DNA of 64,000 nt from Cyanobacteria bacterium P01_A01_bin.123 (GTDB taxonomy: Bacteria > Cyanobacteriota > Cyanobacteriia > Phormidesmidales > Phormidesmidaceae): contig JBCBZT010000032.1 in assembly GCA_039815185.1 (NCBI GenBank), positions 32,290-96,289 on the forward strand, written 5' to 3'. Every line of letters begins with the position of its first letter. Position 1 is the first letter of the stretch. The notes below the pieces were generated by a model. The model searched no databases, was not told the DNA's origin, and worked only from the letters and a program-made list of their open reading frames with translations. Shown piece after piece: positions 18,609 to 34,743 of this stretch. A program made the position numbers and the translations under genes.

Positions 18609-21263
18609 ATGTCTGCTTTGCGTTTCTTTCCCATTGCCAGCGTTTTTCTCCCCGCAGTGCTGAGTCTACCTCCAGCCCTGGCCCAAGCTTGCCCCCATGC
18701 GATTATCCGGATTGAATCCAGCCAAAGCGTTGATCAAGGGGCAATTTGCGACGCAGCCCAGCCTTGGGCTGCTGAGGGGTATGACGTGTTTGTCTTTTTA
18801 ACAGATGTCCAACCCGCTAGCGAAGACGCTTGGTATAGCCTGTTAGATGGTGTTGAGGCTGAAGCTGGGCTGCGCGATTTGACCGAGGAGGATGGATTTA
18901 ACACCAATGCGATCGCCTTGGAAGCCACAACTGCCCCGGTACCCTTTGGGGTGTCATTGACCTATGGGGAAGACTTTTACGGCACCCCTTTAGACACGAA
19001 TGATCAGGTTTTGAACGAGGTTCGCAACGCCCTTGAAGCTCAGCTAGAGCAAAACAATCCAACCCAGGCATTTGTAGAGGGTCTCAATTTGGCGCAGCAG
19101 GCGACCTTTGCTGGAACTGCCCCTAATGCTGCACCGACCCCTTTGCTTGAGCCAACTCTTGCGCCAGACGTAATTGCTGATGATCAGGGGAGTAATGGCT
19201 GGCGATCGCTGGTGGGTGGCGGCCTGATTTTGGGCGGTGGGACCGCTGGAGCGCTGAGCTATCGACGTAAGCGTCTGCGCAAAAAACTGGCGGATCTCCA
19301 GGGTAAAGCGGCAAACCTGATGATGATTTGCGAAGATCATCTCGCCGGGAATCAAACCGAGTTGATGATTCCTTACCAGCGGTTTGTCACCGTGGGTGGC
19401 GAGGTTTACCCAGATATGACTCGGCAGGTCAAAGCTTGGTTGCAAACCTGTCGCCAAGCTTTAGATGAAACCTTTGCCCTACATCAGCAGCTTAATGACG
19501 ATGACAGTCTATCCCTGACGAAGCAACTGGAAGCCTGGGAAGGGTTGTATATGATATTAGTGGGGAGCCGCGATCGCATTTTGAATCAAAGCGAAGCGCA
19601 ACTGCAAAACCTGCTCAATCCAACGCTGACGGTCGCAGAGACTCAACTTGCCAGCCCTGGTCTGAGTCAAAAACTGACCCAGGTTCAGCAAAAGCTACAA
19701 GGTACGCCGATTAAAGCCACCTTTACCCTGACCAAACCCAGCGATCAGGATTTAGAAGGCATTCTTGGCTACCTGGAACAGATCGAACAGCTGATTAACC
19801 GTCTGCGCAAAGCCCCCGAGCAGGCTGAAGAAAAACTGGCGCAGCTCAATCAGCAAAGACAGCAAATTGTGGCGACCCTCCCGGCCAGTTTGAACTTGTC
19901 TACGACCCAAGTGCTAGACAGCGCCGATCAACAGTTGGTCGAAGCCAAAACTGCCGCTGAAGCAGAGCGATATCTCGACACCCTGGCAATTGGCACACAG
20001 CTGACGGCGTCTTTCAAAACGCTAAGCCGATTGGCCCCTGTGTTTGACACTCACGACCAACAGCAAGCGCAAATTCAGGCTTGGGTGGCCCTGGGTTATC
20101 GTCCCCCGCAACTCCCCCTGACCCAAAGGGTAGTGAATAAAACCCTAGAATCCCTTAAGGAGCGGCTGACCACCGGGAACTATGATGCCGCGGAGAAGAC
20201 ACTGAATCAATTTGAAACCGACAGTGAAAATGCTTTCCAAACGGCTCAGCAGTGGCAGCAGCAGCACCAAGACAACATTGCTCGCCTAGGGGAGCTGCAA
20301 TCCAGTTACGACGATTCAGTCAGCTACCTGAATCAAACAGTTGCCCCAGCTTGGCAGACGCTACAAACCTACCCCGAAGGCAACTGGCAGGATATTGTCA
20401 CCGCCATGCCCCAAGCCACTGAGTTGCTCAACACCGTAGCCCGTCAAGATTTACCCCAACTGGCTGAATTCAACAGTCTGGAGCATCAAGACTTTACTGC
20501 CTTTAAGCGTGAAACCGAAGCCACTGGACAACGGTTACACCAAATTCAGCAGCACTTCACCACGGTGACCAATCGCCTGCGGGCGATTCAAACGGCAGAG
20601 CAAAGACTGTCTCACGATTTTGTAGATACTACAGTCGCGATCGCCCATGTAGAAAATGCCTGCACTAAAAAGCTTTTGGGGCTGATTGCGGTTAGTAAAC
20701 CCGATGGCCGTCTCGAAGTCGCTCAACAACAACTAGCTCAGGCTCAAACCTACCTCGGTCAGCGAGAAATCTGGGCGGCTCTCGAGACCCAAGATGAAGC
20801 CCGGCGATTGCTGCTGGTGGTTTATGGCGACGAACTCAATGCCCGTGGCGTGCAAGTTGCCAGCCTAGTCAATCAGCATAAGGCTAGGGGGGCAGGCCGC
20901 GCTAGTTTGAATCAAGCCATCAACCAAATCAAAAGCGAAGCCGAAATTCGCAGCACCAGCCGACAAGCGTTGTGGCAGATGTACCACAACGCCAGCCAAG
21001 CTGAACAACTCTTAGCTGAGGCCAAACGCGCTGCCAACCAAGCCATCCGTCGATATAACTCGTCGTCGTCGCACTCAAGCTATAGTTACCGCAGCAGCAA
21101 CACAGGATTCAGTCGCTCCACGAGTAGCAGGACGCGCTCGTCGAGTTCGTCGAGCTTTCGCTCATCAAGTTCTCGCTCGTCATCCCGGCGCTCGTCATCG
21201 AGTTCTCGCTCGTCATCCCGGCGCTCGTCATCCAGTTCCCGTGGGTCATCCCGCCGCCGATAA
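18609..21263 (+). CDS. Large membrane-anchored protein: signal peptide, TPM-like domain, TM, long helical/coiled-coil region, Ser/Arg-rich tail
   Basis: 884-aa ORF; hydrophobic N-terminus ending ALA, TM followed by YRRKRLRKK, Q/E/L-rich heptads. Confidence 0.7.
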   Translation: MSALRFFPIASVFLPAVLSLPPALAQACPHAIIRIESSQSVDQGAICDAAQPWAAEGYDVFVFLTDVQPASEDAWYSLLDGVEAEAGLRDLTEEDGFNTNAIALEATTAPVPFGVSLTYGEDFYGTPLDTNDQVLNEVRNALEAQLEQNNPTQAFVEGLNLAQQATFAGTAPNAAPTPLLEPTLAPDVIADDQGSNGWRSLVGGGLILGGGTAGALSYRRKRLRKKLADLQGKAANLMMICEDHLAGNQTELMIPYQRFVTVGGEVYPDMTRQVKAWLQTCRQALDETFALHQQLNDDDSLSLTKQLEAWEGLYMILVGSRDRILNQSEAQLQNLLNPTLTVAETQLASPGLSQKLTQVQQKLQGTPIKATFTLTKPSDQDLEGILGYLEQIEQLINRLRKAPEQAEEKLAQLNQQRQQIVATLPASLNLSTTQVLDSADQQLVEAKTAAEAERYLDTLAIGTQLTASFKTLSRLAPVFDTHDQQQAQIQAWVALGYRPPQLPLTQRVVNKTLESLKERLTTGNYDAAEKTLNQFETDSENAFQTAQQWQQQHQDNIARLGELQSSYDDSVSYLNQTVAPAWQTLQTYPEGNWQDIVTAMPQATELLNTVARQDLPQLAEFNSLEHQDFTAFKRETEATGQRLHQIQQHFTTVTNRLRAIQTAEQRLSHDFVDTTVAIAHVENACTKKLLGLIAVSKPDGRLEVAQQQLAQAQTYLGQREIWAALETQDEARRLLLVVYGDELNARGVQVASLVNQHKARGAGRASLNQAINQIKSEAEIRSTSRQALWQMYHNASQAEQLLAEAKRAANQAIRRYNSSSSHSSYSYRSSNTGFSRSTSSRTRSSSSSSFRSSSSRSSSRRSSSSSRSSSRRSSSSSRGSSRRR
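21165..21263 (+). repeat. 33-bp tandem coding repeat (~3 copies) encoding SSSRSSSRRSS
   Basis: Units start at 21165, 21198 and 21231 (third is degenerate). Confidence 0.85.
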
Positions 21264-27917: not shown

Positions 27918-28360
27918 CTTTGATTAAAGACGCATCTGATTGGGAATATTGGTCAGGGGTGCAGGACTCTACTCGCCTACAAAGAAAGCCATAAATCTAT
28001 ATATAGCCAAGGTTCAAAGAATCAGGGCTTATCCGTCTTCATCGTTTTAGGCCAGCCAGATGTCTTTATTAATAATGCTTTTATTGGGGCTTTTAGTACC
28101 GATTTTCTTGTACGTATTGGCAAGTATTTTTCTATGGCCGCTGCTATTTAATTCCGACGATTAATTCAATCATAACTATAGATAAGCTAGTCGTAAAAAA
28201 ACTGTGGCGTTTGCAAAATTTTCTGCCTCACAGCTTCAGTCTGGGCGGCTTTAGAGCAACGCTGTTGACTAGATAGCACGCAAGCCTTGGGAACGGCGTT
28301 ATTTTTCTTCTCTGACCATAGTCTTACTTGATACGGGCTTGATATGGGGTTCCCTGGCAC

Positions 28361-28383
28361 AATATACTACATTGTAGTATATT
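28361..28383. promoter_or_regulatory. Palindromic operator AATATACTACA-T-TGTAGTATATT
   Basis: Perfect 11-bp arms upstream of the vat-kptA-rtcB operon. Confidence 0.8.
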
Positions 28384-28479
28384 GAATCTGTCGCTTGTTA
28401 ATGTAAACCCATTAAGCTCTCACTAGCTTTAATCGTGCGGGGGGTTAGTTACACGGCGATTGATGTGAAATGGGCGTTT

Positions 28480-29127
28480 ATGGTATCTACTCAAGCTCAA
28501 AATGGGCCAAATCCAAATGATCCCTATCCTCTGGCGGAACATCCCAGAGTTTGTTTTCTCAAAAGTGTAATTCGTTCGCCCAATATTCAAGTGGGCAACT
28601 ACACCTATTACGATGACCCCAATGGCCCCACGGGGTTTGAGCACAATAACGTGCTGTATAACTATGGGCCAGAGAAGCTGGTGATTGGTAAATTTTGCGC
28701 GATCGCAACCGGAGTCAAATTCATCATGAACGGGGCCAATCATAAACTAGATGGCATCTCCACCTATCCCTTTCCGATTTTGGGCCATGGTTGGGAAGTC
28801 GCGATGGCTCAAATGTTAAACCTACCCAGTCGCGGCGATACCATCGTCGGCAACGATGTGTGGATCGGTCTTGAGTCGGTGATTATGCCGGGAGTGACCA
28901 TTGGCGACGGGGCCGTAATTGCAGCAAAATCCGTTGTGGTTAAAGACGTTGCTCCATACACCATCGTCGGTGGTAACCCTGCCAAGGTAATTAAACAGCG
29001 CTTTAAAGATCCTGCCATTAAACAGCTCCTACAAATTCAGTGGTGGAATTGGACTATCGACAAAATTACCCGCAATCTGGCTTTGATTATGGCCAACGAT
29101 ATCGATGCGCTAGAACGGGCACGCTAA
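28480..29127 (+). CDS. Vat/CatB-type hexapeptide xenobiotic O-acetyltransferase
   Basis: GNYTYYDD, IGKFCAIA, GANH...STYPF, GNDVWIG, VGGNPAK, QWWNW; likely start ATG 28480. Confidence 0.9.
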   Translation: MVSTQAQNGPNPNDPYPLAEHPRVCFLKSVIRSPNIQVGNYTYYDDPNGPTGFEHNNVLYNYGPEKLVIGKFCAIATGVKFIMNGANHKLDGISTYPFPILGHGWEVAMAQMLNLPSRGDTIVGNDVWIGLESVIMPGVTIGDGAVIAAKSVVVKDVAPYTIVGGNPAKVIKQRFKDPAIKQLLQIQWWNWTIDKITRNLALIMANDIDALERAR

Positions 29128-29146
29128 ATCTGTGAAACCTGCGACC

Positions 29147-29698
29147 ATGAGCGACAAACGTCTGATTAAAATCAGCAAATACCTCAGCTACCATCTGCGG
29201 CACCAGCCCAAAGCATTAGGGCTAACCCTGGGCAAAGGCGGTTGGGTGGATGTCACAACTCTACTCAAAGCCGCTGCTGCTGACGGCTTTCCCATTAGTC
29301 CATTAGAGTTGGAAACCGCAGTCGCCACCAACGACAAGCAGCGCTTTGCTTTTGATGACTCGGGTATGCGAATCCGGGCGAACCAGGGTCACAGCACGCC
29401 CATCGATCTCGATCTTGCCCCGCAAATGCCACCCGACTTGCTTTATCACGGCACTGGCGCACAGTTTGTCCCAGCCATTTTAAACACGGGTTTGAAAAAG
29501 ATGGCGCGTCACCATGTGCATTTGTCCGCCGATCCAGAAACTGCCTATAAAGTCGGCAGTCGCCATGGCAAGCCTGTCATTTTGCAAGTCAATACAGCAG
29601 CTATGGTGGAAAGTGGATTTACCTTTTACTGTTCTGCCAATGGGGTGTGGCTCGTTGAGCATGTCCCGCCGGATTACCTGGAGGCGATTCAGCCATGA
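29147..29698 (+). CDS. kptA: RNA 2'-phosphotransferase (Tpt1/KptA)
   Basis: SKYLSYHLRH, NDKQRF, IRANQGHS, LYHGT, RHHVHLS, NGVWL. Confidence 0.95.
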   Translation: MSDKRLIKISKYLSYHLRHQPKALGLTLGKGGWVDVTTLLKAAAADGFPISPLELETAVATNDKQRFAFDDSGMRIRANQGHSTPIDLDLAPQMPPDLLYHGTGAQFVPAILNTGLKKMARHHVHLSADPETAYKVGSRHGKPVILQVNTAAMVESGFTFYCSANGVWLVEHVPPDYLEAIQP

Positions 29699-30879
29699 CT
29701 TACCAACAACTCAAGCTCTCTACTCCAGCGCCAGTGTTGTCTTGGGCCAACCATGACCTGAGTCACCAGGAAACCCAAATGGCCAAAAATGTTGCCTCTT
29801 TGCCCTTTGTATTCAAGCATGTGGCGCTGATGCCTGACGTTCACTTGGGTAAGGGTGCCCTAGTGGGTTCTGTTGTGGCGACTAAAGATGCCATTATGCC
29901 TGCTGCGGTCGGGGTAGATATCGGTTGTGGCATGTGTGCGGTGCAGACGCCTTTCACCGCCAGCCAACTCGATGACAAAAAGCTGAAAAAAATTCGCAAA
30001 GATGTAGAAGCTGCTATCCCTGTTGGCTTTAACCAAAATAAAAATGCTGACAAAACAGTCTATAACTGGCAAGGCTGGAAAGACTTCAAAGCGCTACATT
30101 CTGGGGTACAACACCTGGAGTCAAAGGCACTGATGCAGTTGGGTTCCCTGGGTGGCGGCAACCACTTTATTGAACTCTGCCTCGATACCGACGATCAAGT
30201 GTGGCTGATGCTGCACTCTGGGTCTCGCAACATCGGCAACATGCTGGCGAAAAACCACATCCAAACGGCTAAGGGATTGGCTAAGCTGGCCCAGGCCAAG
30301 CTGCCCGACCCTGATCTGGCCTATTTTGTCGCGGACACTGATGACTTCCAAAGCTACTGGCGTGATTTGCAGTGGGCCCAAGACTATGCCCGCTATAACC
30401 GAGATGTGATGATGGCTCGGTTCAAACGGATTGTCGAAGGCCATTTGGCTGGGGGCAAACCCACTAAGCCGGTACTTTCAGTCAACTGCCACCATAACTA
30501 TGCTGAAAAAGAAGTCCATTTTGGCGAAGAGGTATATGTCACCCGTAAGGGGGCAGTGCGGGCTCAAACCAATGACTACGGCATCATTCCGGGATCCATG
30601 GGGGCGAAGTCTTTCATTGTTAAAGGTAAAGGGCACCACGATAGCTACTGCTCTTGCAGTCATGGGGCGGGGCGATTGATGTCTCGCAGTAAGGCTAAGC
30701 GGCAGTTCAGCGTGGATGATGTGGTTAAGCAAACTGAAGGGATTGAATGCCGTAAGGATGCTGGGGTGATTGATGAAATTCCGGCAGCTTATAAGCCAAT
30801 TGAGGCAGTGATGGCGAGTCAGTCTGATTTGGTACAGGTTGTTGCCACGCTAAAGCAGGTGCTTTGCGTTAAAGGCTAG
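29695..30879 (+). CDS. rtcB: RNA-splicing/repair ligase RtcB
   Basis: MPDVH, VGVDIGCG, GGGNHFIE, HSGSR, HHNY, PGSMG, SHGAGR; ATGA overlap with kptA. Confidence 0.96.
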   Translation: MTYQQLKLSTPAPVLSWANHDLSHQETQMAKNVASLPFVFKHVALMPDVHLGKGALVGSVVATKDAIMPAAVGVDIGCGMCAVQTPFTASQLDDKKLKKIRKDVEAAIPVGFNQNKNADKTVYNWQGWKDFKALHSGVQHLESKALMQLGSLGGGNHFIELCLDTDDQVWLMLHSGSRNIGNMLAKNHIQTAKGLAKLAQAKLPDPDLAYFVADTDDFQSYWRDLQWAQDYARYNRDVMMARFKRIVEGHLAGGKPTKPVLSVNCHHNYAEKEVHFGEEVYVTRKGAVRAQTNDYGIIPGSMGAKSFIVKGKGHHDSYCSCSHGAGRLMSRSKAKRQFSVDDVVKQTEGIECRKDAGVIDEIPAAYKPIEAVMASQSDLVQVVATLKQVLCVKG

Positions 30880-30944
30880 CAATAATATATCTCTATTGAT
30901 GACTTACCATCCCAGTGAAAGAGTGTGGTTGATGGGCAGCTCAT

Positions 30945-31235
30945 CTAGGCATCTAACTTATTCGAGAACTTGAAATCTTGCGGGCATTGAACATCTACCC
31001 ACACCCGATACAATAATGAACAAGGTGAGATGAGTGTGGTGTAATCTTGGCTCAGTTCACAGGCAAATCGATGAGCCTCTTCTGACTTGTTGATTGGGAA
31101 AACCTTGGCAAGCTTTAGAATTGTCTTCTCATACAAGATACCTTCATAGATCGCCCGATCTTCGTAGAAATTAAAAATATTCAGCCTAGAGGCTGGAACA
31201 ACACGCGGAAGGCTCACTAAATTTTCTCTTTGCAA
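30945..31235 (-). CDS. Hypothetical protein (AT-rich)
   Basis: 96-aa ORF downstream of NADAR on the same strand; TTG start. Confidence 0.45.
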   Translation of the reverse strand: MQRENLVSLPRVVPASRLNIFNFYEDRAIYEGILYEKTILKLAKVFPINKSEEAHRFACELSQDYTTLISPCSLLYRVWVDVQCPQDFKFSNKLDA

Positions 31236-31371
31236 AACTCGATTAACCTCAAGATACCCTGGGAACTATAGAGGTTTGCAAGCCTATTAGCTGATGTTTA
31301 TAGGATAAAAGACGGATGAATGCCGGGGCGATATCCTCTTTTTGCAAAAGCTCATCCCCCCTTAATATTTT

Positions 31372-31827
31372 TTAGGTGACGCCCTCGCTGTGTAGGGTTG
31401 TGCGTACAGCTTCTAAGATCTGACCCAGCTTATTCAAACCGCCGCCATTTTTGCCGCAGCCCCAGTAGTAATCACCGGGCGCATTTTCGACGATCGGCTC
31501 ATCTCCAGTGCCCACCAAGATGGCTTGAATCTCGGCATGGGTCTGAAATTTTGTCAGTACGGCTCGATGCATGATGTCATCTTTGACTTGCTCCCAATCA
31601 GCACGGATAGGATAGCGGCGATCGCGCCCCATAGTCGCTGCAAACTTAGGCGTCCGAGCATCGCCGATTTTGTTTGCCCAGTCAGGTGCTGTTTCGATAA
31701 ATTTCTGAGCTTGAAAATAATGTTCAGTTGTAGGCCACCAACGCTCATCCAAGAAAACACCATGACTCGAAAAGTTAGAAAAGCAACCGTAAGGAACTTC
31801 ACGAGCACTATAAAAATAAATCGTCAT
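31372..31827 (-). CDS. NADAR/YbiA family N-glycosidase
   Basis: YGCFSNF, WPTTEHYFQAQKF, DWEQVKDDIM, D.YWG...G.NKLGQIL. Confidence 0.93.
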   Translation of the reverse strand: MTIYFYSAREVPYGCFSNFSSHGVFLDERWWPTTEHYFQAQKFIETAPDWANKIGDARTPKFAATMGRDRRYPIRADWEQVKDDIMHRAVLTKFQTHAEIQAILVGTGDEPIVENAPGDYYWGCGKNGGGLNKLGQILEAVRTTLHSEGVT

Positions 31828-31850
31828 ATCATTAATCCAAAATTACTGAG

Positions 31851-31923
31851 TGAGTCGCCGGGGAATCGAACCCCGAACCGATCGGTTAAAAGCCGATTGC
31901 TCTGCCAATTGAGCTAGCGACTC
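31851..31923 (-). tRNA. tRNA-Lys(UUU), CCA not encoded
   Basis: GAGTCGC-TA-GCTC..GAGC-A-ATCGG-CTTTTAA-CCGAT...CGGGG-TTCGATT-CCCCG-GCGACTC-A folds as a full cloverleaf. Confidence 0.92.
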
Positions 31924-31927
31924 TTGA

Positions 31928-32032
31928 TACTCTCGTTGGGATTTGTTCGCGGAGCGTTTCTGCTAGGAGTTACCATTACCCATCACCTCTAATTTCTAAG
32001 ATCAATGCCGCTTCCAATTGGGCTAAGAGAGC
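31928..32032 (-). pseudogene. Degenerate tRNA-Leu(UAG) with insertion in the T-loop
   Basis: GCTCTCT/CGAGAGT acceptor, GCC..GGC D-stem, CTTAGAA loop; T-stem TGGG...CCCA split by about 30 extra nt. Confidence 0.7.
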
Positions 32033-32080
32033 GTGTTGATACCCGTTACACCATAGGGGATTGGATGCCGAGGCAGGATT
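32033..32080 (-). pseudogene. Two tRNA gene fragments: a 3' half (AATCCTGCCTCGGCATCCA) and a 5' part (TCCCCTATGGTGTAACGG)
   Basis: T-arm/acceptor/CCA remnant at 32062-32080; acceptor + D-arm remnant at 32033-32060. Confidence 0.55.
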
Positions 32081-32103
32081 TTAAAATGCTCAATATTGAG
32101 CAG

Positions 32104-32177
32104 AGTCCAGAGTGGGAGTCGAACCCACGATTTTCGGTTTTGCAGACCGACGCCTTAACCAACTTGGCTATCTGGAC
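32104..32177 (-). tRNA. tRNA-Cys(GCA), CCA not encoded
   Basis: GTCCAGA/TCTGGAC acceptor, TCGGT-CTGCAAA-ACCGA, GTGGG-TTCGACT-CCCAC, U discriminator. Confidence 0.93.
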
Positions 32178-32194
32178 TTGGGTGGAACATTAAA

Positions 32195-32236
32195 TTTTCA
32201 AGGTTCGCAAAAGGGGCGTGTCGCGCCCCTTTTGCG
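32195..32236 (-). promoter_or_regulatory. boxB-like hairpin + boxA-like GAACCTTGAAAA ahead of the tRNA array
   Basis: CGCAAAAGGGGCG/CGCCCCTTTTGCG 13-bp stem at 32206-32236 runs straight into GAACCTTGAAAA. Confidence 0.6.
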
Positions 32237-32269
32237 TTGGTTTAACGACCTTATCTAAGGCAGTGGGCC

Positions 32270-32482
32270 TCAAAAGAAACAACGCCGTTCTAGAGCATGG
32301 ATTAGTTGGAGTTTGCGATAGCGTTCGGCTTGTTCAAGCTGCCATCGATGGCTGGTGTAGATCGGGAGCTGCGATCGCGGTTTGGAAAATTCCTCTTGGT
32401 CGCCTCGCTTAGGTTGCTTCGTCAAGGGAAAAAGGAATTTGAGCGATCTGAGTTTAAGCGGTCGTAGGGTAAGCGTACTCAT
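32270..32482 (-). CDS. Small basic hypothetical protein (70 aa), first cistron of the tRNA operon
   Basis: GAGGTG RBS and ATG 32482 just downstream of a clear promoter. Confidence 0.55.
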   Translation of the reverse strand: MSTLTLRPLKLRSLKFLFPLTKQPKRGDQEEFSKPRSQLPIYTSHRWQLEQAERYRKLQLIHALERRCFF

Positions 32483-32500
32483 GGGTTGCACCTCATTTTG

Positions 32501-32551
32501 CACTACATTAATGCTACAAAAATACTACAAATATGTCAAGAACGTACTACA
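32501..32551 (-). promoter_or_regulatory. Sigma70-type promoter TTGACA-N17-TAGCAT overlapped by four YRCTACA repeats
   Basis: -35 at 32539-32534, -10 at 32516-32511; repeats start at 32501, 32512, 32523 and 32545. Confidence 0.8.
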
Positions 32552-32719
32552 ACTTTTTTGGCAACATATTGGAACGTGGCAATAGGGGAGATTTGAAGGC
32601 TATAGCCAGATTGCTTGTGTGCTGAGCATCCCAGCGCCACCTGGTGCATTAAGCAATCTGGCCAGCGCTATATTTACTGGGGTTCTCCCCTAACGCTTGA
32701 ATCAAACTTGCCTGGGGCA

Positions 32720-33112
32720 CTACCCGTTCGTCCAGTTGCTTAAGGGAATTTGGGTCTCTTGCCACAGCTTGTGAACCCAATACTCTGCAGAGACTGACAA
32801 CACAGCGAGAAAAGTACCTTCGTGGGCATTAGCACCACAGGCCAACCAGCTTCCATAGAGGCTGATTTCCACATAGTCGTCATCGACAGGGGTAATCGTG
32901 AGCCCCAGATGGGATTCTCGCTGCGCGATCGCGCTGAGTTGGTTGAATGCAGACACAGTGGCAGGCAGTAAGAAAGCCGCTTTACCGGGTTCTAGATGTA
33001 GGGTTTGCCCCAATCGCAGGGCCAAGATCGCCCGCTGGGCAATCAGCACTTCGGGATCGACAAATACCCGTTCGGTGTGCAATCCAACGTCGGTATAGGT
33101 GAGTTTGAGCAT
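32720..33112 (-). CDS. Conserved cyanobacterial protein, alr0857-like family
   Basis: MLKLTYT..GLH.ER....E..IAQR.ILALR.GQ.L..EP..A.FLLP pattern; follows HNH; GAGGT RBS. Confidence 0.7.
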   Translation of the reverse strand: MLKLTYTDVGLHTERVFVDPEVLIAQRAILALRLGQTLHLEPGKAAFLLPATVSAFNQLSAIAQRESHLGLTITPVDDDYVEISLYGSWLACGANAHEGTFLAVLSVSAEYWVHKLWQETQIPLSNWTNG

Positions 33113-33123
33113 GGCAGTACCTC

Positions 33124-33193
33124 GTGGAAAGGGGAAAAGGAGGGAGAGGGAGGAGGGAGAGGGAGGAGGGGAGGAAGGCGGAAGAGAGAGGGA
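33124..33193. repeat. Polypurine low-complexity tract (GGGAGA/GGAGG units)
   Basis: Nearly all G/A on the + strand between the HNH and alr0857-like genes. Confidence 0.7.
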
Positions 33194-33279
33194 TTGAGGC
33201 TTCGTCAGGTGTTGGGTGTAAGGCGAAAAGCCCTGCGCTCAGTTCAATGTGTATTACGCGGCCTTTAACCCTCATACCC

Positions 33280-33804
33280 TCAAACCTTTCCCCTGGCGTT
33301 GTTTTGCCAAAACTGTTCTGCAAAGGCAACGGCCGGATGCATGGGAGTTTTGGGTTTTTGTTTGAGGGTGAAGGGGGTATTGTGCAGTAGGCGATCGCTT
33401 TTGAGAGAGTTACACCGTTCACAGGCGGCGACGACGTTGTCCCAGGTATGGGTGCCGCCTTTAGAACGCGGCAGGATGTGATCAATCGTGAGACGTTTCT
33501 TGCTGCCGCAGTATTGGCAGGTATGGTTGTCTCGGCGCAACACTTCCCGACGATTGACCGGGGGAATCTTCCAATGGCGTTTGGGATCCCTGGCTTTGAG
33601 TCGGATGTGCTCTGGCACTTGCAAAATCAAGTTGGGAGATCGCACTTCCCATTGGCGAGTTGCCCCAAAGTCGAGGCCTTCGGCTTGCCCAGTGACGAGC
33701 AAGATAACGGCTCGCTTCAGGGATATATTGGCTAGGGGCAGATAGTTTTTTGAAAAAACAATGACGGTGTTGTGCAGAATGGATGACGTTTGCTGGCGCT
33801 GCAT
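33280..33804 (-). CDS. HNH endonuclease (McrA-like)
   Basis: VLRRDNHTCQYCG...TIDHILPRSKGG.HTWDNVVAACERCN. Confidence 0.93.
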   Translation of the reverse strand: MQRQQTSSILHNTVIVFSKNYLPLANISLKRAVILLVTGQAEGLDFGATRQWEVRSPNLILQVPEHIRLKARDPKRHWKIPPVNRREVLRRDNHTCQYCGSKKRLTIDHILPRSKGGTHTWDNVVAACERCNSLKSDRLLHNTPFTLKQKPKTPMHPAVAFAEQFWQNNARGKV

Positions 33805-33818
33805 AGTGGGTTTCTCCC

Positions 33819-33856
33819 AAAAAAAATCCCCTGCTTCTGAAACTCAGGAGCAGGGG
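33819..33856 (-). terminator. Intrinsic terminator just upstream of HNH (candidate attenuator)
   Basis: CCCCTGCTCCTGA-GTT-TCAGAAGCAGGGG-A-T8, 12/13 bp stem. Confidence 0.85.
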
Positions 33857-33894
33857 CAACATTAGGGGTATGGTTTTCCCTATGTGGGTGCAAG

Positions 33895-34149
33895 TTAGTC
33901 ACTGCAACCCCTGCTCAAAATCGTGGGTTCTAGATTGATCCAGCCTGCGACGCTGGCGATAATATCGGCACTAATCAGCTGTGTGGGTTCCGGTTTAATC
34001 GAGCCGTGGGAAGGCTTGGGAGATAAGGTATTACCTAGATCGCGGCTACCATAGCCAAACCGCATTATCGCATTGCCGAAACCAAAGGCGTTGGCACAAT
34101 GGCTAGGGCAATACATCATACGGATGGTGGTGGAAGATCTGCGAATCAT
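33895..34149 (-). CDS. Putative leader ORF (84 aa) of the HNH operon
   Basis: Lies between a promoter and the terminator; its last codons contain the anti-terminator strand. Confidence 0.5.
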   Translation of the reverse strand: MIRRSSTTIRMMYCPSHCANAFGFGNAIMRFGYGSRDLGNTLSPKPSHGSIKPEPTQLISADIIASVAGWINLEPTILSRGCSD

Positions 34150-34165
34150 GGCGGGGTGTAATTTT

Positions 34166-34217
34166 TGTAGTATTAAGTCAGTGTCTCTATGCTACATGCG
34201 TAGTATGGAGTTGTCTA
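34166..34217 (-). promoter_or_regulatory. Promoter TAGACA-N17-TAGCAT with TGTAGTA/TGCTACA/CGTAGTA operator sites
   Basis: -35 at 34217-34212, -10 at 34194-34189; motifs at 34166, 34190 and 34199. Confidence 0.7.
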
Positions 34218-34338: not shown

Positions 34339-34743
34339 TTGATTACGTTTTCTGAGCAGCGAGACATTGCCATCGAACAAATCCTTCTTTTATATGAGTC
34401 TAATGGTTGGTCTTCAGCTCAAAAGCCCCAAGTTTTACATCAGGCATTACTCAACTCCCATGGGCTTGTCTCGGCATGGGATGGCGAAAAACTAGTTGGA
34501 ATTGGCAATGCTATTTCGGATGGGTTTCTGGTGGTTTATTATCCCCATCTCTTGATCCATCCAGATTATCAAGGTCAAGGCATTGGCAAACGCATTATGG
34601 AAATCTTGAAGCAGCGATATGCAGGCAGGCATATGCACATGCTGGTTGCCGATCATGACGCGATCGCTTTCTATGAAAAATGCGGGTTCACAAGGGCTGG
34701 CAAAACAGAACCTATGTGGATATATGATGGCGACGATCACTAA
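34339..34743 (+). CDS. GNAT family N-acetyltransferase
   Basis: IHPDYQGQGIGK, AIAFYEKCGF; TTG start with GGAGGGAG RBS. Confidence 0.9.
   Translation: MITFSEQRDIAIEQILLLYESNGWSSAQKPQVLHQALLNSHGLVSAWDGEKLVGIGNAISDGFLVVYYPHLLIHPDYQGQGIGKRIMEILKQRYAGRHMHMLVADHDAIAFYEKCGFTRAGKTEPMWIYDGDDH

Follow-up and report, generated by a model that had tools for sequence, protein, structure and literature searches.

The DNA analysed here is a 64,000-nucleotide window from Cyanobacteria bacterium P01_A01_bin.123, whose genome comprises 8.09 Mb in 133 contigs (C43, C55, C96, C109 and C121, named below, are contigs of this genome). Within the window, positions 28361..34217 hold a 6-kb island with two convergent arms. 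We consider it likely that three transcription units, all belonging to the TrcR translational-stress regulon of cyanobacteria, have been juxtaposed here in a lineage-specific way. The first unit would be a vat-kptA-rtcB operon. The second would be a paralogue of the trcR-divergent operon, with an asr0855-like leader open reading frame (ORF), a structured element with an intrinsic terminator, an HNH gene and alr0857. The third would consist of a promoter and the decayed remains of a horizontally spread L-array of tRNA genes, behind which NADAR and a small ORF would be transcribed by read-through. The arrangement is compact, partly decayed and new, and the underlying TrcR/L-array system is already described. 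What the sequence adds is vat, kptA and NADAR as candidate regulon genes, and a conserved leader not described before.

Three control regions with one operator type

In Anabaena, according to the main texts of PMC10272220 and PMC8421152, TrcR (all0854) is a ribbon-helix-helix repressor with an 8-bp consensus like TGTAGTAT that overlaps -10 boxes. Its targets there include a 26-gene trn operon, rtcB, the HNH gene all8564, the operon asr0855-alr0856(HNH)-alr0857, GNAT genes, rsgA and others, and translation inhibitors lift the repression. A first-pass annotation of the window had named this precedent (a silent tRNA operon plus rtcB, repressed by TrcR and induced by inhibitors), and the main texts of both papers bear it out.

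Gene calls were taken from the ORF list, ARAGORN, Rfam, Pfam and NCBIfam. The plus arm carries the vat-like gene, kptA and rtcB. The minus arm reads leader ORF, terminator, HNH, alr0857-family gene, trn-type promoter, a leader of ~330 nt, tRNA-Cys, a tRNA-Gln fragment, a broken tRNA-Leu, tRNA-Lys, NADAR and a 96-aa ORF. The anatomy first described for both arms, including the two intact tRNAs and the broken tRNA-Leu, was thus found in place.

Boxes of the TGTAGTAT type occur in three control regions (28364-28380, 32511-32551 and 34166-34206), where each overlaps the predicted -10 hexamer, so that the earlier claim of one motif in all three upstream control regions is confirmed. The 64-kb window contains five exact boxes against 0.61 expected from shuffles, and none of 100 shuffles reached five; one of the five TGTAGTAT copies, at 20626-20633, falls outside the island. 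The whole genome has 85 exact copies. When clusters were defined as at least two sites with at most one mismatch, 33 were obtained genome-wide, 12 of which hold an exact site, and three of these 12 fall within the 6 kb. The other nine precede genes for an RsgA GTPase, an ABC ATPase, two GNATs (on C55 and C109), a subtilase and one unnamed protein, as well as the HNH gene and the L-array on C96 and a spare tRNA-Asp on C121. Since these nine clusters mostly mirror the classes of the Anabaena TrcR regulon given in Table 1 of PMC10272220, we regard the motif as validated. Judged by its sequence, the shared motif is the TGTAGTAT-type TrcR operator.

A genome search for a TrcR-like ribbon-helix-helix repressor, as suggested with the first annotation, yielded an orthologue at C43:104856-105182, with 72% identity over 109 aa to the Nostoc protein encoded divergently to leader-HNH-alr0857. 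In Nostocales alr0857 loci, the product of this leader-divergent gene is 111 aa long, its N-terminus is typical of ribbon-helix-helix proteins, and the published trcR promoter motif sits exactly between the gene and the leader. A TrcR-type protein is divergent to leader-HNH-alr0857 in 24 of 48 related loci and in 25 of 29 further loci found with the leader model described below. It is because of this synteny that we take the C43 protein, which has no Pfam family match, to be TrcR. Moreover, ATGCTACACGTGTATTAC upstream of C43 trcR agrees with the published motif ATACTACACTTGTATTAC in 15 of 18 bases (the match is exact in the Nostoc loci), and the gene is divergent to a third alr0857 paralogue of this genome. 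As trcR is encoded on another contig, the island would be regulated in trans, and its initial description as 'self-contained' had to be given up.

In the proposed mechanism, TrcR from the other contig would bind the TGTAGTAT-type boxes and hold all three units silent, and impaired translation would lower the TrcR level, as in Anabaena, and switch the units on. RtcB would then reseal cleaved tRNA or rRNA, KptA would strip 2'-phosphates or modify 5'-phosphate ends, and the Vat-like enzyme (streptogramin/chloramphenicol-type) would acetylate a ribosome-targeting compound. The two extra tRNAs would enlarge the tRNA pool or serve as decoys, and NADAR would hydrolyse base-linked ADP-ribose on nucleic acid.

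The promoter/operator of the plus arm (28339..28383, plus strand) has a -35 TTGATA and a -10 TATACT, and an inverted exact box pair, ATACTACA T TGTAGTAT (28364-28371 and 28373-28380), lies over the -10. The first gene (28495-29127, plus strand) encodes a hexapeptide (xenobiotic) O-acetyltransferase of 210 aa from its ATG. Its score with NF000311 is 288.9 bits, below the equivalog cut-off of 300 bits, and the nearest solved chains are streptogramin A acetyltransferases (VatD, E 2e-69), with CatB chains at ~1e-48. With a score under the cut-off and VatD chains as its best relatives, the protein is called Vat-like here. The next gene (29132/29147-29698, plus strand), which likely starts at the ATG at 29147, encodes a KptA/Tpt1 RNA 2'-phosphotransferase that exceeds the NF002014 equivalog cut-off (264.4 versus 239 bits) and is matched over its full length by PF01885 (175 bits, 1-176 of 177). 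The RtcB RNA ligase gene follows (29695-30879, plus strand; PF01139, 418.6 bits, model positions 2-426 of 426). Its ATG overlaps the kptA stop, which makes the plus arm a tight operon, and it is the one rtcB found in the whole genome. Ligation by RtcB yields no 2'-phosphate for KptA to take off, and we know of no established physiological substrate of bacterial KptA.

The leader of the HNH-alr0857 unit

The second unit stands behind an operator/promoter at 34166..34206, with an exact box at 34166-34173 and further boxes at 34189-34196 and 34199-34206. Its asr0855-like leader ORF (33895-34149, minus strand, 84 codons) ends with a TAA within the loop of a hairpin, P1. The leader frame runs on past this TAA to a TAG at the conserved stop position (33880-33882), and the TAA lies four codons before the stop position of most relatives. 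The conserved 3' part of the leader (33816..33928, minus strand) comprises element 1 (GAGCAGGGG, 33908-33916), P1, the stop, a spacer, a terminator at 33828-33856 and a T-run, and the terminator hairpin with its T-run stands directly before the HNH start. Nearly all related loci have a TrcR box 340-450 nt before HNH or alr0857 and a GC-rich terminator just before the gene start.

In an alignment of 32 leaders, AAGCGGGAGG (element 1) is followed by P1, a stop codon of fixed position, a spacer often folded into a second hairpin, and the terminator with the consensus CCCCCGCTyy...rrAGCGGGGG, ahead of the T-run. Changes on both sides were found at all seven P1 pairs and at 4 of 10 terminator pairs, and 89.5% of the cells are paired, compared to 41-52% when the partners are slid. 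RNAalifold applied to the first alignment returned only the terminator, and P1 was specified by hand. Where element 1 was located, its frame is open for 50-182 codons and the other two frames are usually short; in most of these loci the element-1 frame ends 21-32 nt before the terminator. The open frame and the conserved structure together therefore point to a translated asr0855-like ORF with a 3' end constrained at the RNA level. The 84-aa ORF was also considered as a conserved protein and rejected as such: tblastn gave no match in 48 loci, and what is conserved is the reading frame, the place of its stop and the fold of the RNA.

Element 1 lies within the last dozen leader codons and is a near copy of the terminator 3' arm, and would therefore be able to pair with the terminator 5' arm. 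In folds of full transcripts, the terminator formed in 32 of 32 cases; when the transcripts ended before the 3' arm, element 1 paired with the 5' arm (at least 5 pairs) in 29 of 32. Little covariation backs the anti-terminator (3 cells, with 92% paired). In the window, the three strands GAGCAGGGG, CCCCTGCTC and AAGCAGGGG carry matched changes relative to the G, C and G of most other leaders, and these changes keep both pairings, which argues for continued selection. In sequence and folding, the region is built like an attenuator: its leader ORF precedes an intrinsic terminator, which stands ahead of the gene and is mutually exclusive with an anti-terminator.

R1, a covariance model derived from 30 leaders, with which the window's leader scores 68.9 bits, finds four copies in the genome: in the window, on C96, on C43 and on C121 (49.2 bits). 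Of 151 genomes sampled, 34 have copies, and every one of these belongs to the window's own class. At the 29 further R1 loci, HNH and/or alr0857 come next in 28 and array tRNAs follow directly in one; 25 of them are those with the divergent trcR mentioned above. Rfam holds no family for the leader, the sole match being NsiR1 to the terminator, with 18.5 bits against a cut-off of 39. The main texts of PMC10272220 and PMC8421152 contain no mention of attenuation, a terminator or a leader, and a literature search by locus tag returned no further study of these leader-operon genes.

With such a leader, ribosomes moving normally through the ORF would make element 1 inaccessible and let the terminator form; if ribosomes were slow, stalled or absent, element 1 would become free and transcription would read through into HNH-alr0857. 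In the copies before L-arrays, read-through would extend towards the tRNAs. We put forward tentatively, as possible rather than probable, the joint proposal that the leader is a translation-sensing transcription attenuator and that kptA, vat and NADAR are true members of the regulon. If this were true, the TrcR regulon would gain a second, direct translation sensor at the locus encoding the repressor, and bacterial KptA would be placed in a defined physiological setting.

The HNH endonuclease gene (33280-33804, minus strand; PF01844, 59.7 bits) is of the alr0856/all8564 type, and its product is 68% identical to the HNH protein encoded upstream of the C96 L-array. In 23 of 48 related loci, an HNH gene immediately precedes alr0857, and HNH has been proposed in PMC8421152 as a homing function that spreads the array. 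The alr0857-family gene (32720-33112, minus strand) scores 134.5 bits with NF045647 (cut-off 75). A structure model of its product (predicted local distance difference test, pLDDT, 88.5) had no Foldseek match in the PDB at E <= 0.001, all E being >= 0.06, and a wide VIA structure search with this model led to no assignment (best Z 3.9). Complex prediction for HNH and the alr0857-family protein gave a score of 0.00, which bears on a complex neither way.

Three observations were made around these genes. The HNH-alr0857 spacer (33113-33279) contains a C/T-rich low-complexity run with ctccctcc repeats; most relatives have only 20-60 nt between HNH and alr0857. On C96, the alr0857 copy that precedes the 16-tRNA array (C96:89387-89770; locus L090, 7388-7771) has an in-frame stop at a family-invariant Trp (GS*IA versus GSWLA) and is either a pseudogene or an assembly error. 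Finally, alr0857 is separated from the tRNA promoter by a dispersed, miniature-element-like repeat of ~70 nt (32604-32676); when 32590-32700 was searched by short-word BLAST, 188 genome-wide matches were obtained, many with 85-96% identity over ~70 nt.

The control region at 34166..34206 is shared with a divergent GNAT acetyltransferase gene (34339..34743, plus strand; PF00583, 56.9 bits), which occupies the place where trcR sits in most relatives. GNATs being among the Anabaena TrcR targets in Table 1 of PMC10272220, this gene is a possible further regulon member. A promoter scan at the GNAT gene gave none that was convincing.

The tRNA unit and the genes behind it

The third unit begins with a trn-type (L-array-type) promoter at 32511..32559 (minus strand; -35 TTGACA, -10 TAGCAT). 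Tandem boxes, TGTAGTAT and TGTAGCAT, lie over its -10 with an 11-bp period, and another box stands just upstream of the -35. Over 47 nt it shares 83% identity with the sequence before the L-array of locus L030, and its layout is that of the C121 promoter. L-arrays contain up to 43 tRNA genes (PMC8421152). The unit shares with them an upstream HNH gene, a repeat-bearing promoter and non-housekeeping members; a long dense tRNA run is absent, a stretch of ~330 nt holding two intact tRNAs, a pseudogene and a fragment. With only two intact tRNAs in the run, the unit is therefore a remnant and not an array. Of the 60 tRNA genes found by ARAGORN in the genome, 16 form a run on C96 that reaches the contig end and is preceded by an HNH and alr0857 copy, so that the 'private tRNA array' of the first-pass annotation shrinks to these few members beside a fuller array elsewhere.

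The tRNA-Cys(GCA) gene (32103-32177, minus strand; Rfam 72.8 bits) is the second genomic copy and of the L-array type; it agrees with the array tRNA-Cys of locus L010 at 60 of 75 bases and with the housekeeping copy at 44 of 75. Next to it, an 18-nt 3'-end fragment of tRNA-Gln(CUG) (32060-32077, minus strand) matches 18 of 18 bases by blastn inside the array tRNA-Gln of another cyanobacterium (locus L030, 9752-9769), which as a short match is weak evidence. At 31928-32032 (minus strand), the T-loop of a sequence resembling tRNA-Leu(UAG) is interrupted by 37 inserted nt. Of the 55 bases compared at its 5' end, 43 match the short array-type tRNA-Leu(UAG) and 33 the housekeeping copy. With 17.6 bits it stays under the Rfam cut-off of 29, and it folds no better than shuffles (z 0.87); it is therefore treated as a pseudogene. 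For the same reasons (insertion in the T-loop, sub-threshold score, fold), we rejected it as a spliced tRNA served by RtcB/KptA. The tRNA-Lys(UUU) gene (31850-31923, minus strand; ARAGORN, Rfam 69.1 bits) is a second copy, the housekeeping copy being on C43, and does not discriminate (57 of 75 bases to the array copy versus 62 of 74 to the housekeeping copy).

HNH-alr0857 continues into long arrays in four of the 48 loci (L010, L024, L026 and L030), in which the order is Asp-Glu-Cys-Met-Trp ... Gln-Gln-Leu ... Leu-Lys-Lys. The order in the window (Cys, Gln fragment, Leu pseudogene, Lys) agrees with this array order if internal deletions are assumed. Array tRNAs are discussed in PMC8421152 as a supplement to the pool or as decoys. 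It should be noted that the array 'tRNA-Leu' genes of L010, L030 and C96 measure 74-78 nt, without the long variable arm of the 83-nt housekeeping tRNA-Leu. On C121, a leader/terminator copy at 178467-178789 is followed by a trn-type promoter with four boxes and a third tRNA-Asp(GTC) (locus L092, 2300-3100, minus strand). HNH and alr0857 appear to have been deleted from this locus, which would be another L-array remnant.

Two further features lie between the trn-type promoter and tRNA-Cys. A 77-aa ORF (32270-32503, minus strand), within the ~330-nt leader of the tRNA unit, has no family match in Pfam or NCBIfam and finds only itself among 5.8 billion proteins; without relatives, it is probably not a gene. 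It was tried as TrcR, or as any gene, and set aside, with TrcR located elsewhere. A perfect 14-bp GC-rich palindromic hairpin (32206..32236), picked up by a scan for terminator-like structures, occurs once in the genome.

The NADAR-domain gene (31372-31827, minus strand; PF08719 128.4 bits, TIGR02464 139.4 bits with a cut-off of 73.7) begins 22 nt after tRNA-Lys and is therefore probably co-transcribed with the tRNAs. In the first reading it stood for 'ADP-ribose cleanup', which as a partner activity of KptA is not supported. We rejected NADAR as an eraser of KptA products, since the NADARs described in PMC11833690 are inactive on phosphate-end ADP-ribosylation of the Tpt1/KptA type. At the end of the minus arm, a 96-aa ORF (30945-31235, minus strand) matches no Pfam, NCBIfam or PADLOC family; it has only three unnamed relatives in a search of 5.8 billion proteins and a 30%-identical paralogue on C3.

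The pseudo-tRNA and tRNA fragments, the 70-nt repeat inserted between alr0857 and the tRNA promoter, the leader TAA four codons ahead of the usual stop position and the in-frame stop in the sister alr0857 on C96 would all suit a largely dead relic, in which a horizontally acquired minus arm decays, its promoters and leader are defunct and the boxes are leftovers. We find this decidedly unlikely. HNH, alr0857, NADAR, tRNA-Cys and tRNA-Lys are intact and score well, the -35, -10 and box sequences are intact as well, and the matched substitutions in the terminator and element 1 of the window preserve both pairings.

A role in anti-phage defence or counter-defence, with the tRNAs and RtcB repairing anticodon-nuclease damage, NADAR reversing DarT-type ADP-ribosylation and HNH as effector, seems highly improbable. 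NADARs do act as DarT antitoxins (PMC11125620), the window's NADAR has weak matches to defence models (NCBIfam DS32_2, 62.3 bits with a cut-off of 240; a PADLOC candidate, 32.8 bits), and the HNH motif matches PtuB-type models at 35 bits. However, no DarT-like neighbour accompanies NADAR, which is flanked by tRNA-Lys and the 96-aa ORF without a family. No protein of the island reaches a curated defence-family threshold (with PADLOC 2.0, seven of nine proteins were unmatched, and apart from the NADAR match there were only generic HNH-motif matches of 35 bits or less), no integrase or phage genes were present among the scanned ORFs, and the operator links the locus to the translational-stress regulon.

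Relatives and known systems

When 30 relatives were searched at the DNA level, rtcB turned up with 70-76% identity and the arrangement did not. Of 401 genomes sampled from the phylum, 72 encode KptA. At the 29 best kptA loci, neither vat nor rtcB lies within 1.5 kb, while a TrcR-type box pair was found within 1.4 kb upstream in 13 and downstream in none. A box pair also stands directly upstream of rtcB in three of eight loci of relatives and at NADAR in one of three. In the one same-genus genome (85% complete, 650 contigs), vat is followed by a KptA-like start at the contig end, and no rtcB lies within 4 kb of the other kptA piece. From this box distribution, the operator would be a long-standing feature of rtcB, HNH-alr0857 and the array; kptA has it frequently and NADAR occasionally, and at vat it is apparently new. 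The check in relatives that was suggested at the outset therefore splits: the genes are unlinked, and the box pairs occur at some of the kptA and rtcB loci but at none of those of vat.

Several loci combine kptA with other genes. At L051 (1223-3356; contig C19 of genome G080), a kptA-GNAT-NADAR operon with overlapping stops and starts stands behind two exact TGTAGTAT boxes, and NADAR also adjoins kptA at locus L065. In G050 (contig C27), G020 (C1) and G011 (C16), kptA lies 5-6 kb from the trcR/leader-HNH-alr0857 locus. At L072 (363-3325) and similarly at L069, L076 and L079, all from one genus, a box pair lies ~1.1 kb upstream of kptA, before a gene for an S-adenosylmethionine (SAM)-dependent methyltransferase, and an AAA ATPase gene follows kptA; this is a TrcR-boxed kptA operon of another kind.

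The 6 kb might also be a selected, self-sufficient island, in which nuclease, tRNAs, ligase, phosphotransferase, hydrolase and acetylase form one pathway against ribotoxins or antibiotics. Three units with one operator type inside 6 kb, the kptA genes near trcR in G011, G020 and G050, and kptA and NADAR within one operon at L051 agree with this, as does the enrichment of L-array neighbourhoods in RNA-processing and translation genes, including rtcB (PMC8421152). We nevertheless hold it to be unlikely. The repressor is encoded outside, the array is mostly decayed, the arrangement was absent from the 30 relatives, and none of the 29 kptA loci has vat or rtcB close by. RtcB leaves KptA no 2'-phosphate. 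NADARs of the kind described do not act on KptA-type phosphate ends. Of the earlier interpretation, the Anabaena precedent, the motif and the repressor remain; the self-contained and conserved island, the private array and 'ADP-ribose cleanup' as a partner activity of KptA do not.

The reading that we prefer, three units of the TrcR regulon brought together in this lineage, also has evidence to contend with. Binding of this genome's TrcR to the island boxes would follow by extrapolation from Anabaena, and co-transcription of NADAR with the tRNAs from a 22-nt gap. The relatives are related to one another and their loci are not independent samples; pieces of the island lie on different contigs in relatives G407, G411 and G422. 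No box was found upstream of vat in the same-genus genome, and no box pair at the 12 other loci of vat homologues. The Anabaena table has no kptA entry (K07559), and the Anabaena NADAR gene all5029 does not respond to deletion of trcR (log2 fold change -0.25); because of these last two points, the case for vat, kptA and NADAR as regulon members is made from motif position.

The TrcR/L-array system is among the few known bacterial cases in which a silent second tRNA set and RNA-repair genes are held for translational stress. The present locus shows this regulon rebuilt in another lineage, with a mobile HNH-alr0857-tRNA module decaying beside the only rtcB of the genome, and rtcB itself joined into a single-operator operon with kptA and a Vat-like acetyltransferase. 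That kptA is often TrcR-boxed across cyanobacteria suggests a physiological setting for bacterial Tpt1/KptA, and an enzyme of the antibiotic-modifying type may be induced by the same stress that its substrates cause. Moreover, the leader of the trcR-divergent transcript is conserved and structured, with a terminator and an anti-terminator as alternative pairings; the main texts of the two TrcR and L-array papers do not mention it.

The closest known system is the TrcR regulon of Anabaena sp. PCC 7120 as set out in those texts. Common to both are the TGTAGTAT operator (single, tandem or inverted) over the -10, the target classes rtcB, HNH, alr0857, asr0855-like ORF, tRNA-array promoter, GNATs and RsgA, and, in this genome, a TrcR orthologue with the published promoter motif. 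Whereas the Anabaena targets are distributed across the chromosome and one megaplasmid, the three units abut here. Here rtcB is third in an operon with a Vat-like gene and kptA, whereas kptA is missing from the Anabaena table; two intact tRNAs stand against 26 genes; and a NADAR gene is attached, while that of Anabaena does not respond to TrcR. The locus also resembles the cyanobacterial L-array neighbourhoods of PMC8421152, with HNH (and alr0857) directly upstream of a tRNA promoter, rtcB nearby and promoter repeats over the -10 and further upstream; it differs in its decayed array and convergent arms. The words vat, kptA and NADAR have 0 occurrences each in the main text of PMC8421152, a count that does not extend to its figures and supplements, including the neighbour list of Figure 6B.

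In the RtcR/RtcBA operon of E. coli and Salmonella, as described in PMC10272220, an RtcB ligase is likewise induced by translation or tRNA damage. Here, however, there is neither RtcA nor the sigma-54 activator RtcR; control would be exerted by a ribbon-helix-helix repressor, and the partners of rtcB are kptA and an acetyltransferase. The leader, finally, resembles those of bmrB-bmrCD of Bacillus subtilis (PMC4191407) and mef(E)/mel (PMC4335068) in combining a translated leader ORF, an intrinsic terminator and an exclusive upstream pairing, with genes induced by translation inhibitors as the context; in the present case the likeness is one of sequence. It differs from both, as those sources describe them, in that its leader ORF is long (50-182 codons) and lies behind a repressor-controlled promoter.

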